Source: Pontibacterium sp. (GTDB lineage Bacteria; Pseudomonadota; Gammaproteobacteria; Pseudomonadales; Balneatricaceae). From it: DNA of 24,000 bases. The translations under genes and the position numbers were made by a program. Within the stretch, counting starts at the first letter, position 1. Each line of letters begins with the position of its first letter. Below are positions 3,608 through 24,000 of this stretch, in pieces. The stretch lies in assembly GCA_049603715.1 (NCBI GenBank), contig JBMYSW010000013.1, positions 66,217-90,216 on the forward strand. The letters are read 5' to 3'. Under the pieces are notes generated by a model, which was not told where the DNA came from, ran no database searches, and was given only the letters and a program-made list of their open reading frames with translations.

Positions 3608-3973
3608 ATGCCAGTCGCGTTAACCGTATGTGATGACTCCGTAATGTCACGCAAGGGCGTTATGCGAGCCATTCCCAGTGAGTGGGATGTAACAATAACT
3701 CAAGCTGCTAATGGCTTAGAGGCGCTTGAAGCTGTTGCCCAAGGTAAAGCTGAAGTGCTGTTTTTAGATCTAACAATGCCAATTATGGACGGCTTGGAGG
3801 TGCTAGAGCGTCTACATAAAAATCAGTCGCCGACCAAGGTGATTGTAATTAGTGCAGATTTTCAGCCAGAGGTTTCTGAACGAGTGATAGAGCTGGGTGC
3901 CCTTGCTTTTATTCAGAAGCCAGTGAACGGCGATAAACTTCGCGAGGTGCTTGCGGCGGAGGGCTATCTATGA
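3608..3973 (+). CDS. CheY-like single-domain response regulator
   Basis: 121 aa with CDDS, acceptor FLDLTMPIMDG, VIVISAD and IQKP. The RBS GGAGG lies 5 nt upstream. The stop overlaps the next start (ATGA at 3970-3973). Confidence 0.9.
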   Translation: MPVALTVCDDSVMSRKGVMRAIPSEWDVTITQAANGLEALEAVAQGKAEVLFLDLTMPIMDGLEVLERLHKNQSPTKVIVISADFQPEVSERVIELGALAFIQKPVNGDKLREVLAAEGYL

Positions 3974-4596
3974 GCAGCGTTTCTGATAACGAAAAACAAG
4001 AACTCATTCAGGATGCGCTTCAAGAAATCCTCAATATTTCCATGGGGCAAGCAGCCAACAACTTGGCAAAGCTCATTGATACGCGGGTAGTTATTTCTAT
4101 CCCGAAGTTGCATTGGGTGAAGTACCGCCGTAACAGATTAGAGCCAAGTGCTATTGGTACCAATGAGCAGGGCACGTTGGCCCGTCAGTCATTTTTGGGT
4201 GGTGTTTCGGGTGAAATCATCGTGTGTTTTAAAGAAGACTCGCGACATCACCTATTAGCTGAAAGCTTGGGATATTCTGATAAGTTAAGCCGTGAGGAGC
4301 GCCAAGAGCTCACGCTTGAAATCACCAATATCTTGTGTGGAGCGTGCTTGAGGGGTTTGGCTGAACAGCTAGAAATAGACCTGAGCTTTGGTGCGCCCTC
4401 GATGCTAAGCCAAAACTCGACCGTGGCCGATTTTTTAAATAAACAAGAGCTCGTTTGGTCTGACGCTTTGTTTATGGAAATTCGCTTTGCGGTGGAAAGC
4501 ATTTCAATGAACACCGGCTTGTTAATCTGCATGTCTTCAGAGAACACCGATAAGCTTTTCGGAAAAATTGAAGAACTGTTCGGAGACGATCTATGA
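3970..4596 (+). CDS. CheC/CheX/FliY-family aspartyl-phosphate phosphatase (two-site, CheC-like)
   Basis: Two copies of the family motif D/S-X3-E-X2-N-X22-P can be counted directly. The first is D-ALQ-E-IL-N followed by 22 residues then P (DALQEILNISMGQAANNLAKLIDTRVVISIP). The second is E-LTL-E-IT-N followed by 22 residues then P (ELTLEITNILCGACLRGLAEQLEIDLSFGAP). There are ATGA overlaps with both neighbours. Confidence 0.8.
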   Translation: MSSVSDNEKQELIQDALQEILNISMGQAANNLAKLIDTRVVISIPKLHWVKYRRNRLEPSAIGTNEQGTLARQSFLGGVSGEIIVCFKEDSRHHLLAESLGYSDKLSREERQELTLEITNILCGACLRGLAEQLEIDLSFGAPSMLSQNSTVADFLNKQELVWSDALFMEIRFAVESISMNTGLLICMSSENTDKLFGKIEELFGDDL

Positions 4597-18844: not shown

Positions 18845-20206
18845 CTAGATTGGCCAGTCTGCGGCGTCTACCGTATCAATAGACGCTCGCCCTTGTGCGG
18901 TTTGTTGGTAGGAAGGACCTAACCAACGCCGCTGAAACTCGCCCTCTGGGTCGTGTTCTTTGGTTTGTTTTTCGATGTTAAAGTGCCTGCCCCCGCGCGG
19001 GTCTGCGCCAACACCCGCAATGTACTGCCAGTTTCCCCAGTTACTTCCCACTTCGTAATCCAGCAACTGCTGCTCAAAATAAGCAGCACCACAGCGCCAA
19101 TCCAGCTGTAGCTCATTGATAAGGCAACTTGCGACGATTTGTCGGCCACGGTTGGACATAAAGCCTGTGGCATTTAGCTCCTTCATGCAGGCATTCACTA
19201 ATGGCCATGGCGTCTCGCCGGCGCACCATTGTTTGAATCGTTGCGGGTAAAAGCTCGTGAGGAGCTTTTTGTTTTGCTCACCACCGAATAAAAACAGGCT
19301 GGCCTGCTGGTGACGAGCTAACCAAAAAAAGTACTCCCGCCATAACAGCTCAAAGTAAATCCATTCGGTCGAGTCGTTTGCGCCGTGTAGTTGCTCGTAG
19401 TGTTTGAGTGCATCGTAGGTTTTTCGCACCGACAAGCTACCATTGGCTAACCAAATAGATAGCTTGGTGGACTGGCTCCAGCCTTGAAGCGCATTGCGGG
19501 TTTGTTTGTAGCTGCTGGGAGCGTCGCTGGCAAAGTAGTCGGCCAAGTGGGCTAGCCCTGCGGCTTCTCCGCCTTCAATCTGGCCTTGGGTGTGTGTGGC
19601 AGGTGTATATTCCTGCAACAGGGTATTAGCCAGTGCGCCTATCTCGATCTCTGTAGGCGCAGGGAGGTACAGGGGCTTTTGCTCAGGCGCAACAGGTAAC
19701 AAGTGGCTAACCTGTTTACGAAATTTTGAAAAGCTTTGCGGAAACGGCGAGAAGTCTGGCAGCTGTGCCAGGTTAAATAAGGTATGGCTGTCTTCTTCCT
19801 CAAAGCTCAAGTTGGGGCGATGCGGCTCAACCGCTTGCTGAATCTTTTGCCAAGCTTGCTGCTCATAAAGGCCTGACCTGCGGCTGCGAACGACGCGATC
19901 AAATTTGTTATTTAAGAGCAATGTGGTGATGGCTTGGCTGGCCGGGCCGGTAATAAGCTGTAAGCGTTGACCAAAGCCTCGGAGTTGTTGGCTTAGCCTG
20001 TGAAGCGTGGCGAGCATAAATTCATGTCGCTTTTTACTCATGGCGGTGGTGCCAAAGGCATTGGCTTTGTCCCACCTTGGCTCTACGCAGAAAACGCAGG
20101 TGAGCGTTTTAGAGGTCTGCGCTGCCTTTAACAAGGCGGGGTTGTCGTGTACGCGTAAATCGTCGGTAAACCAAAAAAGTGTATTTGCCATAATCGCCTT
20201 ACCCAT
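18845..20206 (-). CDS. cryptochrome-DASH / deoxyribodipyrimidine photolyase family protein
   Basis: N-terminal LFWFTDDLRVHDNPAL. C-terminal FAD-binding signatures GFMSNRGRQIVASCL, DYEVGSNWGNWQYIAGVGADPRGGRHFNIEKQ and HDPEGEFQRRWL. The alternative start at 20191 (MANTLFWF) has AAGG upstream and may be the true start. Confidence 0.85.
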   Translation of the reverse strand: MGKAIMANTLFWFTDDLRVHDNPALLKAAQTSKTLTCVFCVEPRWDKANAFGTTAMSKKRHEFMLATLHRLSQQLRGFGQRLQLITGPASQAITTLLLNNKFDRVVRSRRSGLYEQQAWQKIQQAVEPHRPNLSFEEEDSHTLFNLAQLPDFSPFPQSFSKFRKQVSHLLPVAPEQKPLYLPAPTEIEIGALANTLLQEYTPATHTQGQIEGGEAAGLAHLADYFASDAPSSYKQTRNALQGWSQSTKLSIWLANGSLSVRKTYDALKHYEQLHGANDSTEWIYFELLWREYFFWLARHQQASLFLFGGEQNKKLLTSFYPQRFKQWCAGETPWPLVNACMKELNATGFMSNRGRQIVASCLINELQLDWRCGAAYFEQQLLDYEVGSNWGNWQYIAGVGADPRGGRHFNIEKQTKEHDPEGEFQRRWLGPSYQQTAQGRASIDTVDAADWPI

Positions 20207-20491
20207 ATTCGCTTAATGGGGCTGAATTGAATCTATATTCGTTTAACATGCAAATATTAGTTGCACAGTTACTGAGGTTATTTTATTGCTCTAAAACTCG
20301 CGTTTTACGGATTTTTTTAATGATTGGTTTTTTATAGTAGTATTTATTTTTTTAGCCGTATTTAGAGGAGTTAAACGAGATATTGGCATGGTTTTTTGAA
20401 ACTCATGCAATGGTACTAGGCTCTGATATTAAACTTGAGGTGTAATGATTAATTCGTTTTACTGTTTGTAACGTAACTGATGGAGAAACGC

Positions 20492-21991
20492 ATGAATCGT
20501 GCTTTTTTAAAACAGGTTAACGATCCTTTCCTTTTAAGATTTATATCTACTCCTCGATTTTTACAGCTCTCTTTTTATACCGATTTATTAGTGACCCTTG
20601 CCTTCGTGGCTGTAATTGCCTTTACCAGTTTGAGCAGCCTGTCGGCGCATGCGGTAGAAGAGGGTAGTGCTACTGCGGCAGTGACTGAAACCTCAGTTAA
20701 TCCAGCGCAAAGCGCTGCTACTCCCTCGCCTGAAGGCGAGGGTAATATGAGTAATGCAGTCCTCGACGTCGCCGAGGCTTTTGCGATTGATGATGACCTC
20801 AAGGCCCTGACGGATCAATATGATGCTTTTTTAGCCAATATTGGCTTGAGCGATAATGTGTTTGGTGCGCTGGTTGCGACATTGGCTTTTGTCGTTGCGT
20901 TTCTTGTAGCACGACTTTTTATTGCGTTTTCGTTACGTTCATTAAAGAAATGGGTGTTGGGGTTTAAACATCGTTTACAGCTGAGCGAAGGACGCATTGA
21001 TTTTTATTACTCAGCATTAACGTTGGTTTCTAGCTTAATTTTATTTTGTTTAATGCTCGTTAGTGTTTTGAATGTATGGGATGTAGATCTGTCATTTCTA
21101 TCGTCCGATAGTATTCAGAATATTACCGCAGGCCTCGTATCAATATTATTTATTATTGCCCTAGGTATTGTGGCGGTTGAGGTGGCCAGCGGCCTTATCA
21201 ATATTTATTTTGATAAGCAGCCGTTGAGTGAGTCGCGTATTAGTACGCTTAAGCCTATCGCTAAAAACACCATATTGGCCCTAATCTTTTTCACCTTTGG
21301 TATGGCTGCACTTTCGCAGTTGGGTATCGACATTCTGCCGCTATTGGCGGGTGCTGGTGTATTAGGTATCGCCATTGGTTTTGGTGCACAGTCGTTAGTT
21401 AGCGACATCATCACGGGTTTTATCATCATTCTTGAAGACTTAATCCAAGTGGGCGATGTGGTTACGCTTAATGACCGAACAGGTGCCATTGAGCGCATTA
21501 CGGTACGTAAAGTTCAAATGCGGGCCTTTGACGGTACGGTCTTTACCATTCCGTTTGGCCAAATCAGCATTGTCGAAAACCATACCAAGCTATTCAGCTA
21601 TTACGTGTTTGAAGTAGGCGTGGCGTACCGCGAAGACGTAAACGAAGTCATGGCGCTGCTTAAAGACCTCGGTAAAGCCTTGCGTGCAGACGATGAGTTC
21701 AGCGATGCGATTATGGACGACCTTGAAGTATTTGGTGTCGACCAACTGGCCGACAGTGCCGTGGTCATTAAGGCGCGTATCAAAACCAAAGCGAAGCAGC
21801 AGTGGAGTGTGGGCCGAGAATTTAACCGTCGTATGAAGATGGCCTTTGATGAGCACAACATCGAGATCCCATTCCCACACCAAACCATTTACATGGGCGA
21901 GCCCAAGTTGGGCAAAGCGCCTGCACTTAATGTGGATGTTTCGGGTACGCCAACCACCAAGGTTGAAGCTAAACCAACGAATATTCAGTAA
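20492..21991 (+). CDS. MscS-family mechanosensitive ion channel protein
   Basis: The pore and beta-domain signature is GAGVLGIAIGFGAQSLVSDIITGFIIILEDLIQVGDVVTLNDRTGAIERITVRKVQMRAFDGTVFTIPFG. There are several upstream TM helices and an N-terminal signal-like segment. The ATG at 20492 has GGAG 6 nt upstream, whereas the track start at 20480 has no SD. Confidence 0.85.
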   Translation: MNRAFLKQVNDPFLLRFISTPRFLQLSFYTDLLVTLAFVAVIAFTSLSSLSAHAVEEGSATAAVTETSVNPAQSAATPSPEGEGNMSNAVLDVAEAFAIDDDLKALTDQYDAFLANIGLSDNVFGALVATLAFVVAFLVARLFIAFSLRSLKKWVLGFKHRLQLSEGRIDFYYSALTLVSSLILFCLMLVSVLNVWDVDLSFLSSDSIQNITAGLVSILFIIALGIVAVEVASGLINIYFDKQPLSESRISTLKPIAKNTILALIFFTFGMAALSQLGIDILPLLAGAGVLGIAIGFGAQSLVSDIITGFIIILEDLIQVGDVVTLNDRTGAIERITVRKVQMRAFDGTVFTIPFGQISIVENHTKLFSYYVFEVGVAYREDVNEVMALLKDLGKALRADDEFSDAIMDDLEVFGVDQLADSAVVIKARIKTKAKQQWSVGREFNRRMKMAFDEHNIEIPFPHQTIYMGEPKLGKAPALNVDVSGTPTTKVEAKPTNIQ

Positions 21992-22079
21992 CCCAACCCC
22001 TAGCTCCAGGTAAGCCATGCGCTTATCTGGGATGCCTTGTTCCACTTATTAACTTGAGCTCTGCTCAAAGGAGACAACC

Positions 22080-22331
22080 ATGGACATTTCAGGCTTAATC
22101 GGATTTTTAATTATTGGTGCAATTGCCGGCTGGTTAGCCGGTAAAATTATGAAAGGCGATGGCTTTGGCCTACTCGGCAACATGGGTGTCGGTATTGTCG
22201 GTGCGGTGATTGGCGGCTTTGTGTTTGGCTTGGTGGGCCTTACTGCGGGTGGTTTTGTTGGCTCGCTGGTGACCGCAACTGTGGGTGCGGTGATTCTGCT
22301 CTACTTAGTAGGCGTGTTAAAACGAGCGTAA
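22080..22331 (+). CDS. GlsB/YeaQ/YmgE (transglycosylase-associated) family small membrane protein
   Basis: 83 aa, Gly-rich and hydrophobic: GFLIIGAIAGWLAGKIMKGDGFGLLGNMGVGIVGAVIGGFVFG. The RBS AAGGAG is present. Confidence 0.8.
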   Translation: MDISGLIGFLIIGAIAGWLAGKIMKGDGFGLLGNMGVGIVGAVIGGFVFGLVGLTAGGFVGSLVTATVGAVILLYLVGVLKRA

Positions 22332-22351
22332 TTTACAAAGTATTCCTAATT

Positions 22352-22389
22352 AAAACCGCCACGTGTATTAACTTACACGTGGCGGTTTT
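22352..22389. terminator. bidirectional intrinsic terminator between the glsB-like gene and intI
   Basis: AAAACCGCCACGTGTA / TTAACT / TACACGTGGCGGTTTT forms a 12-bp GC-rich core, with an A-run on the left and a T-run on the right. Confidence 0.75.
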
Positions 22390-23355
22390 TTATAAATCAG
22401 ATAGCGGGCTTACCACCACTCGACCGTGCCCCTTGAGTACATGAGTATAAATTTGGGTGGTTTTTACATCAGTATGGCCCAGCTGAGCTTGTACGGTACG
22501 AATGTCGGCACCGCGCTCAAGTAGGTGAGTGGCAAAGCTATGCCGTAAGCTATGGCAAGAGGCCGCTTTGTGGATGTTGGCTCGTTGCACTGCCTTTTTA
22601 ACGGCACGCTGAACACTTTGCTCTGATATGTGATGGCGTCGCTCGACACTACCTTCACGGTGATCGATAGAGCGTAAATGTGCCGGAAAGAGATATTGCC
22701 ATGCCAAGGCTTTCGGCGCACTTTGGTATTTTTTAGCCAAGGCCGTGGGCATATATACACCTTGCCAACCTTCAAAATTTAGGTCGTCTTGCCAATACAG
22801 CCTAACTTGCTCTAACTGTTGCTCTATCAACGGCACACAAGACTCAGCCAAGGTCGTCACTCGGTGCTTGCCACCTTTCCCTTCGTAAACATTAACCGAT
22901 AGCTGCTCCAAGTCGACATCTTTTACCCGTAGTCGACAAGCTTCCATTAAGCGCAAGCCCGAGCCATACATGAGTAGGGCACATAATCGCTGTACACCTT
23001 GCATTTCGTCGAGCAGAGCACGAACCTCACGTCGCGTAAGCACCACGGGGAGTTTGGCCTGCCGTTTAGAGCGGGTAAAGTTGGGTAGCTCGAAGGCGTC
23101 GTGGCCAAAGTAATTTTTATAAAGGTACGCTAGGGCATTAAGCGCCGTTTTTTGTGTAGAGGGTGAGACGTCTCGTTTTACCGCCAAATACTCTAAGTAG
23201 GTAACCACGTGCTTAGGCGTAAGTTGCGCGGGGTGTTGGCGCTGGTGGAAGCGAATGAAATCGAGTATCCAATAGATGTAGGTTTGCTCGGTACGTTTTG
23301 CATAGTTACGCGCGCGCAGATGATCGCGCACCGACTGAATGAAAGGAGAGGCCAT
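22390..23355 (-). CDS. intI: integron integrase (IntI-type tyrosine recombinase)
   Basis: 321 aa. The tyrosine-recombinase catalytic set is present: GLRLMEACRLR, HSLRHSFATHLL, LGHTDVKTT and IYTHV. It also has the IntI-specific extra segment between them (PTALAKKYQSAPKALAWQYLFPAHLRSIDHREGSVERRHHISEQSVQRAVKKAV). The ORF appears intact. Confidence 0.9.
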   Translation of the reverse strand: MASPFIQSVRDHLRARNYAKRTEQTYIYWILDFIRFHQRQHPAQLTPKHVVTYLEYLAVKRDVSPSTQKTALNALAYLYKNYFGHDAFELPNFTRSKRQAKLPVVLTRREVRALLDEMQGVQRLCALLMYGSGLRLMEACRLRVKDVDLEQLSVNVYEGKGGKHRVTTLAESCVPLIEQQLEQVRLYWQDDLNFEGWQGVYMPTALAKKYQSAPKALAWQYLFPAHLRSIDHREGSVERRHHISEQSVQRAVKKAVQRANIHKAASCHSLRHSFATHLLERGADIRTVQAQLGHTDVKTTQIYTHVLKGHGRVVVSPLSDL

Positions 23356-23534
23356 CCGTAGTGTCTCCGTTGCTTTGTGGTAGAGGGTTGGATAAAGTTT
23401 GACCTATTGCTACCGCTGATCGCAATTGGGAAAAGGGAGTTTTACAGGTTGTTGCAGCGGGTATTTCCCCATGCCGTATGTCGTTACTCTGTTTAGAATT
23501 TGTTTAAAGTGCAAAAAAGGTATACTTTTTACAT
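23356..23534. other. intI-cassette intergenic region expected to hold attI, PintI and Pc
   Basis: The call is positional, based on the divergent intI and first cassette-like genes. One GTTRRRY match is present (GTTGGAT, 23387-23393), along with weaker GTT cores at 23483, 23491 and 23502. The exact crossover point cannot be fixed by eye. Confidence 0.4.
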
Positions 23535-23804
23535 ATGATCTTTGAGTTCGATGAAGCTAAAAGTCATGTAAACCTAAACAAACACGGTATCGACTTTCTG
23601 CAAGCCCAAAGGCTCTGGCGCGATGAACGGCTGCTAGAGATTCCTGCTAAAACAGAAGATGAGCCTCGATTTGTGGTTATTGGAAAGATAGGCGTTAAGC
23701 ATTGGACGGCCGTGATTACGTATCGCGGAGTAAATGTTCGGCTTATTTCTGTAAGGCGTTCGAGAAAAGCGGAGGTAGCTCTGTATGAAAGCGAAAGCAT
23801 TTGA
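23535..23804 (+). CDS. brnT: BrnT-family (DUF497) ribonuclease toxin
   Basis: 89 aa, FEFDEAKSHVNLNKHGIDFLQAQRLW...EPRFVVIGKI...VRLISVRRSRKAEVALYE, which matches the DUF497 pattern (F.WD..K...N..KHG..F..A...F, iR.IS.R.a...E...Y). It overlaps the next gene by 20 nt. Confidence 0.8.
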   Translation: MIFEFDEAKSHVNLNKHGIDFLQAQRLWRDERLLEIPAKTEDEPRFVVIGKIGVKHWTAVITYRGVNVRLISVRRSRKAEVALYESESI

Positions 23805-24000
23805 TAAAGCTTTTGATGATGGTGAAGACATTACCGAACACTTGGATTTGGCTGCAAGCAAGCGCCCTCAGCAAAAGCAAAAGCACGTTAATGTCGACTT
23901 TCCTACTTGGATGATAGAGTCGCTTGATCGCGAAGCCCAACGAGTGGGTGTTACCCGCCAATCGATCATCAAAGTATGGTTAGCTGAGCGGCTAGAGCAG
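23785..24000 (+). CDS. brnA: BrnA/CopG-like antitoxin, 3'-truncated by the window edge (not in the ORF track)
   Basis: The ATG at 23785 translates as MKAKAFDKAFDDGEDITEHLDLAASKRPQQKQKHVNVDFPTWMIESLDREAQRVGVTRQSIIKVWLAERLEQ and is open to position 24000. This is the typical DUF497 partner pattern (FD.GEDI...LD, VNVDFP.WM...LD.EA.R.GV.RQS.IK.WL). Confidence 0.7.
   Translation, partial: MKAKAFDKAFDDGEDITEHLDLAASKRPQQKQKHVNVDFPTWMIESLDREAQRVGVTRQSIIKVWLAERLEQ

Follow-up and report, generated by a model that had tools for sequence, protein, structure and literature searches.

The right-hand end of the 24,000-nt stretch of Pontibacterium DNA analysed here (the window, with positions counted from its first letter) carries on its minus strand an integron integrase gene, intI, and, divergent from it, a brnT-brnA toxin-antitoxin (TA) operon, hereafter brnTA, that runs off the window end at 24000. 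Pontibacterium is a member of the Oceanospirillaceae. Sequence beyond 24000 was read from a 97%-identical metagenomic contig, L082 (2,235 bp), located among short metagenomic contigs via the exact 83-aa GlsB/YeaQ-like protein encoded beside intI. This contig is 97.2% identical and gap-free against window positions 21954-24000 and extends 186 bp past the window end, with position p of L082 corresponding to window p+21951. As judged from the comparison of related loci, the window very probably ends on the intact platform of a sedentary chromosomal integron, in which brnTA lies inside the platform, between intI and the attachment site attI. The features of this platform are the following.

22390 to 23355, minus strand: intI, integron integrase, 321 aa, intact (ATG start, TIGR02249 match, full-length alignment to 2A3V)
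23356 to 23482: intI-proximal platform (Pint region), partly homologous to that of relatives, about 29 nt shorter and with a degenerate LexA box by alignment
23370 to 23385: degenerate LexA-box position, TTG-N10-GAG, aligned to CTG-N10-CAG in relatives
23483 to 23489, plus strand: GTTACTC (GTCG/TTACTC), 52 nt before the brnT ATG, a weak candidate for a relic cassette 5' boundary and left junction of the brnTA insert
23521 to 23526, plus strand: TATACT, -10-like hexamer of a putative brnTA promoter, within GGTATACTTTTT (conserved motif)
23535 to 23804, plus strand: brnT, toxin, 89 aa (PF04365, 83.8 bits, full profile 1-77/77)
23791 to 24000, plus strand: brnA, antitoxin, first 70 of 90 codons (NF047399, 120.3 bits against a cutoff of 60), running off the window end
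24067 to 24122 by equivalence (L082 2116-2171): palindrome-attI element, found also at 9763-9866 in L001 and L002, 3131-3234 in L091, 9763-9866 in L093 and 9706-9809 in L045

The loci compared include L087, a second contig from the same sample as L082 whose IntI (P0002) is 85% identical to that of the window, two complete Neptuniibacter genomes (L001 and L002, IntI 64-65% identical), two further metagenomic contigs (L091 and L093) and a Zooshikella sequence (L045). The minus-strand open reading frame (ORF) of the window is confirmed to encode a true IntI, not a XerC/D recombinase. It scores 412.7 bits against the NCBIfam model TIGR02249 ('integron integrase', cutoff 265), covering positions 1-315 of the 315-position profile, whereas the XerA, XerC and XerD models yield 144-185 bits, far under the cutoff of each, and Pfam recognizes a SAM-like N-terminal domain followed by a catalytic domain. 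The best solved-structure match is VchIntIA/IntI4 (PDB 2A3V), aligned from residues 1-320 to 1-319 with E=4e-96. Alignments to XerA and XerD split into two blocks and skip residues 188-238, whereas 2A3V aligns across them; these residues constitute the IntI-specific segment near patch III, with ALAWQYLFPA at 216 and RRHHISE at 239. By alignment to 2A3V, the catalytic residues are R135 (GSGLRLME), K160 (GKGGK), H268 and R271 (CHSLRH), H294 (LGHTD) and Y303 (QIYTH), and W219 and H240/H241 of the attC-recognition surface are likewise conserved. A reading of the window made from its sequence only, before any comparison, had proposed an intact integrase with a complete catalytic set and the additional IntI segment, and all three proposals stand. 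The protein is 100% identical to MGB0663987.1, deposited at NCBI as 'MAG: integron integrase [Pontibacterium sp.]'; among its best 120 database relatives, at 54-98% identity (P0001 98%, P0002 85%, the rest 54-68%), those that bear a name are integron integrases. The position of VchIntIA W157, which we take to contact an extrahelical attC base, is occupied by Tyr in the window IntI and by Asn in the Neptuniibacter IntIs.

The toxin gene comes first in the operon and overlaps the antitoxin gene by 14 nt, and the family matches, gene order and overlap identify BrnT/BrnA as a predicted type II toxin-antitoxin. The sequence-only reading had placed this divergent pair about 180 bp upstream of the integrase, and the spacer between the brnT and intI starts indeed measures 179 nt. 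In L082, where BrnA is seen at its full length of 90 aa and the brnA stop falls at the equivalent of 24055-24057, a 46-nt palindrome, ATATACGTCAcacTGACGTatttaatcACGTCAcatTGACGTATAT, begins nine bases past the gene (equivalent of 24067-24112) and is followed by TTAGCT and GTTAGCG. The palindrome thus leads into TATATTTAGCTG/TTA, the slash marking the crossover, which as G/TT would fall at the equivalent of 24119/24120. The order in the window lineage, past 24000 as given by L082, is hence intI, an intI-proximal platform of about 127 nt, a brnTA segment of about 580 nt, the attI palindrome and core, and then a new ORF.

In L082 and L087, the element found after brnA can be aligned gaplessly to elements in L091, L093, L001, L002, L088 and L090, L045 carrying a variant of it, and yields a consensus of about 60 bp: the palindrome ATATAYRTCA-N3-TGACGY...RCGTCA-N3-TGAYRTATAT, then TTAGCT and the crossover G/TTA. 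In L091, L093, L001 and L002, a gene-free stretch of 223-226 nt separates the intI ATG from the GTTA, and the intI upstream region of the two Neptuniibacter genomes ends in GGAGATATATATCAAATTGACGCGTTTAATCACGTCAATTTGATATATATTTAGCTGTTATG, directly after which these genomes diverge. In the same manner, L082 and L087 are alike through the palindrome and TATATTTAGCTGTTA and then fully divergent (GTTA/GCGGACTC versus GTTA/TGTGTCTT); with L088 and L090, three related pairs diverge directly after GTTA. Divergence at exactly this point is the signature of integron crossover at G/TT and, combined with the homology to the intI-proximal element of relatives and the attC arrays that follow it there, it points to the element as the attI of this IntI clade. 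On this comparative evidence, the palindrome with TATATTTAGCTG/TTA is an attI type common to a marine IntI clade that comprises Pontibacterium, Neptuniibacter, Zooshikella and several metagenomic lineages. With the attI of the window lineage set after brnA, its predicted position is about 765 nt from the intI ATG, as opposed to about 225 nt in relatives. A metagenome scan with the attI core matched three short contigs, a scan of viral contigs with the same core gave no match, and neither did a metagenome scan with a 44-nt brnA pattern.

The symmetry of the palindrome is largely maintained across the eight sequences available, with 92% of its 19 possible pairs kept and four positions changed on both arms; the arms change together between lineages, as in ACGTCAaagTGACG/CGTCActtTGACGT versus ATATCAaatTGACG/CGTCAattTGATAT. 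In this small set of related sequences, the conservation of pairs is suggestive, and it fits a hairpin or symmetric protein-binding sites alike; an accessory IntI site, a regulator site and a hairpin are the candidates. In L088, L090, L091 and possibly L093, a 31-codon ORF with a Shine-Dalgarno-like sequence spans the palindrome; its stop codon is the TAG of TTTAGCTG, 4 nt short of the crossover. L001 and L002 lack its start codon, and in the window lineage brnA takes the place of its 5' half; it is reminiscent of ORF-11 of attI1.

The location of attI after brnA bears directly on what brnTA is. The sequence-only reading had likened the pair to the stabilizing cassettes found in chromosomal integrons, an assignment that the attI homology overturns. 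TA pairs, BrnT/BrnA among them, are documented as cassettes inside integron arrays (PMC7370490, PMC13108822) and are common there, a 77%-identical BrnT is a genuine cassette with its own attC in L095, and brnTA is oriented away from intI, as cassettes are, with GTTACTC 52 nt before brnT and a G/TTA boundary after brnA. A captured stabilizing cassette is nevertheless quite improbable. The element after brnA is the homologue of an attI that in relatives stands next to intI with no gene between, and brnTA has no attC of its own (R''/R', L''/L') at its 3' end. Within 170 nt upstream of the post-brnA element no R'' AAC is present, the sole AAC within 200 nt lying 171-180 nt away, inside brnA; the element folds into an internal hairpin only, its 5' flank AAAGGAAAGGG being unable to pair with TTAGCTGTTA on the R' side. 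The missing R'' AAC, the unpaired flanks and the homology to relatives' attI together rule the element out as an attC, and a custom attC finder (R''/R' pattern plus fold) was negative on it in both L082 and L087. This finder, used with the AAC criterion and homology in place of a covariance model, recovered the Vibrio cholerae repeats and the attC of L081 as positive controls; in relaxed mode it was noisy, and it missed real attCs in L088 and L089 that were then found by eye. Its relaxed matches inside the window (22072-22139, 22175-22229 and 22317-22466) were discarded as lying in coding sequence or in a terminator. Between intI and brnT, moreover, there is no palindrome/TAGCTGTTA element, only the lone GTTACTC at 23483; a GTTGGAT at about 23386 was rejected as an attI crossover, since it lies 31 nt from the intI ATG in a stretch homologous to the intI-proximal platform of relatives. 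Lastly, cassettes enter at attI, yet L082 and L087 vary downstream of brnTA and not upstream. Because brnTA is kept next to intI in these two lineages with different downstream sequence, it is by all appearances a fixed part of the platform and not a captured cassette.

Two other explanations take the conserved block itself differently. Were the palindrome-GTTA a regulatory or terminator element that happens to end the block, the divergence after it would be coincidental; a palindrome could well be a dimeric regulator site or a hairpin, and the recombination-site role is drawn from sequence comparison. Three independent pairs diverge at the same GTTA, however, its distance from intI is fixed, attC arrays begin one cassette-length after it, and its core ends in the GTT that PMC2811028 gives as common to all integron att sites, all of which makes this explanation highly improbable. 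The other possibility is a relic, in which intI, brnTA and attI persist with no array or with one or two decayed cassettes, as in an In0-like or eroding integron. The loss of the LexA box in the window lineage (see below) would fit such erosion, as would the decay of brnTA in the sister lineage L087, where it has suffered an 11-bp deletion, a 228-bp deletion and a premature stop next to an intact attI with different downstream sequence, and the existence of an attI-like element without intI or attC in L090 and of the same locus without intI in L081; no attC is seen in this lineage, with L082 and L087 readable only 64 and 44 nt past the crossover. Against erosion, the window, L082, L083 and L087 all have an intact intI. 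L082 and L087 differ exactly from G/TTA despite a 92-96% identical brnTA-attI module, which points to recent recombination at attI. Moreover, 3-10 canonical attCs are present in each of the five relatives that have this attI type, a visible intI and a flank that can be read, and L081 has a canonical attC beside the same core gene. A relic is thus unlikely, though less so than a captured cassette.

The same evidence bears on the array. In relatives, canonical attCs (xxTAACAAG...GGCGTTAxxx, 55-142 nt) start one cassette-length after attI and then repeat, numbering four in L091, seven in L093, seven in L001, ten in L002 and three in L045, and they occur also in L088 and L089. The sequence-only reading had expected the cassette array, and any novel accessory content, to the right of the window, and a putative recombination site followed by new sequence is what L082 displays: a new ORF starts 16 nt past the crossover (ATGAATATTATAGCAAGAGCC...), and L087 has a different ORF. 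Because relatives carry attC arrays and L081 has an attC at the same locus, this genome probably contains a cassette array beyond about 24120.

Contig L081 (1-2333; same sample as L087) shares with that locus a 93% identical glsB-like gene and, downstream of it, the same terminator region as in L087. In place of intI it bears a RelE/Xre pair, a canonical 93-nt attC (ACATAACAAGTTGCCAA...TTGGCAAGGCGTTAGGC, 1698-1790) and a 145-aa ORF; intI, brnTA and attI are absent from it. This could be a cluster of attC sites lacking integron-integrases (CALIN) at the same locus or a chimeric assembly. An attC beside the same core gene indicates that integron cassettes occur at this chromosomal locus in the population, and they are oriented there as an array to the right of the window would be. 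Two copies of a 75-nt repeat, 79% identical, also lie on L081, at 420-493 and 1461-1535; their R'-like end is decayed (GGCTTAGGA / GGCGTAAGGA).

The origin of brnTA can be approached through its homologues. Among 93 loci, brnTA adjoins intI only in L082 and L087. The motif GGTATAYTTTT is conserved 9-14 nt ahead of the ATG of brnT genes that are 75-77% identical and stand in unrelated contexts (window 23515-23534, L094 about 3980-4000, L095 about 3895-3913) and is probably the -10 element or operator of brnTA, implying a very short or absent leader. In L095, whose BrnT cassette has an attC downstream, the preceding R' box lies 58 nt before the ATG, and in L094 a GTTAGCT lies 73 nt before it. 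Because true brnTA cassettes exist and all compared homologues share the -10-like motif, the module was probably a cassette at first and has a promoter of its own.

The spacer between intI and brnT records a further change. Homology with relatives' platforms extends over its start, where an ACAGGnnGTTA at about 23440-23455 is weakly conserved, and then fades around 23483. In L093, L001, L002, L045 and L092, a LexA-box-like CTG-N10-CAG lies 18-45 nt from the intI ATG, L091 having CTG-N11-CAG; no CTG-N10-CAG is present on either strand of the window between 23301 and 23560, and L087 likewise lacks it. Both window and L087 have instead TTG-N10-GAG and a deletion of about 29 nt relative to these relatives, and intI of the window lineage is probably no longer under SOS (LexA) control. 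The suggestion of the sequence-only reading that the platform may be active therefore stands as regards the intact integrase, and has to be qualified as regards the LexA box that relatives possess upstream of intI and that is absent here.

The comparison of window and L087 along the locus also points to movement of the module. Per 100 nt, identity within the intI body is about 63-81% (about 72%); from about 23240 rightward, a stretch that takes in the 5' end of intI, the spacer, brnT and attI, it rises to 92-100%. This jump indicates that the common ancestor of the brnTA-attI modules is much younger than that of the intI bodies, and the tract looks like homologous recombination moving the module between two Pontibacterium lineages. 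That the sequence after G/TTA differs between the near-identical L082 and L087 modules suggests, in turn, that attI has been used recently.

Folded attC cassettes are inserted by IntI at attI, and the first of them are expressed from the adjacent promoter Pc (PMC13108822, PMC3948777). The most probable reading of the arrangement described here is that, in the window lineage, a brnT-brnA operon of about 580 nt with its own promoter has been inserted just upstream of the attI palindrome. Without an attC, brnTA could not be excised by IntI, and the array of this genome would start at about 24120. In this model, brnTA might stabilize the platform and the adjacent array by addiction. Its transcription toward attI would read through attI and contribute to the expression of the first cassettes, so that the brnTA promoter may add to or replace Pc, and intI would no longer be under LexA control. 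A bolder form of the model would make brnTA a working platform part, un-excisable and rendering platform loss lethal, with an autoregulated, stress-responsive promoter that acts as or reinforces Pc and replaces the LexA/SOS link with a TA-coupled control of the first cassette. We put this bolder form forward as a tentative possibility, one that is rather doubtful as a whole.

Several observations weigh against the placement of brnTA in an intact platform, or against parts of the model built on it. The window stops 57 nt before the brnA stop, and attI and all that follows are read from a 97%-identical metagenomic contig; L082 and L087, in turn, are too short past the crossover for any attC to be seen in this lineage. 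A consensus promoter scan found no full sigma-70 match for brnTA, and no GTT or attC relic is present at its right junction. It appears, furthermore, that the attI-like element can exist as an orphan: in L090 (971-1074), no intI lies within 1 kb upstream of it, an alpha/beta-hydrolase-like ORF being found there instead, and no attC follows the 218-aa ORF that comes after the element.

To the left, the platform adjoins ordinary core genome, with the following features.

18845 to 20206: photolyase-like ORF (ORF and profile match)
20480 to 21991: MscS-type channel (ORF and profile match)
22080 to 22331: GlsB/YeaQ-like protein, 83 aa, equal to MGB0663986.1
22352 to 22389: inverted repeat aaaaccgccacgtgt...acacgtggcggtttt, with the glsB/yeaQ-like gene on one side and the intI stop on the other (40-nt reverse self-match, 90%)

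The inverted repeat is probably a bidirectional terminator and the left edge of the platform. Several ORFs of 40-150 aa opposite the MscS and intI genes, such as 21590-22045 on the minus strand, resemble non-coding shadows, and a scan of the window against Rfam at gathering thresholds returned zero matches.

The integron itself is ordinary, and its integrase had already been annotated by NCBI as such; the new part, a modest one, is the architecture, that is, a toxin-antitoxin embedded in the platform. A search of the accessible literature did not turn up a TA module, or a gene of any kind, described as lying between intI and attI, which is weak negative evidence. For IntegronFinder, any coding sequence from intI to the last attC counts as a cassette (PMC4889954), and brnTA would under that definition be mislabelled as the first cassette. 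The locus offers a natural case of a TA module apparently locked into a platform, and as such is relevant to the maintenance of sedentary integrons and to what promotes expression at attI in the absence of the SOS box. The conserved palindromic attI type, for its part, allows attI to be predicted in genomes of the clade and provides a substrate for recombination assays.

Compared with the sedentary chromosomal integrons of marine Gammaproteobacteria, such as the IntIA/attIA superintegron of V. cholerae and those of Neptuniibacter, Alteromonas and Pseudoalteromonas, the platform of the window shares an IntI with the IntI-specific domain, 49-65% identical to theirs, an intI divergent from attI and array, a chromosomal setting beside core genes and, in its relatives, attCs of the form xxTAACAAG...GCGTTAxxx. 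It differs from them in the TA operon that lies between intI and attI, which moves the predicted attI from about 225 to about 765 nt from the intI ATG, and in the loss of the LexA box. With the TA cassettes of the V. cholerae sedentary chromosomal integron and the BrnT/BrnA cassettes of metagenomes, brnTA has in common the kind of gene pair, a promoter of its own, the cassette orientation and stabilization as its likely role (PMC13108822, PMC7370490). Unlike them, it has no attC, sits on the intI side of attI outside the variable array, and would not be mobilizable by IntI. The attI1 of class 1 integrons, a simple site with DR1 and DR2, resembles the attI described here in being an element of about 60 bp beside intI that ends in G/TTA, and both have two repeated units before the core, which in the present case are candidate accessory IntI-binding sites. 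There is no sequence similarity between the two beyond GTTA, however, and the two units of the marine attI type are themselves inverted repeats that jointly form the 46-nt palindrome.

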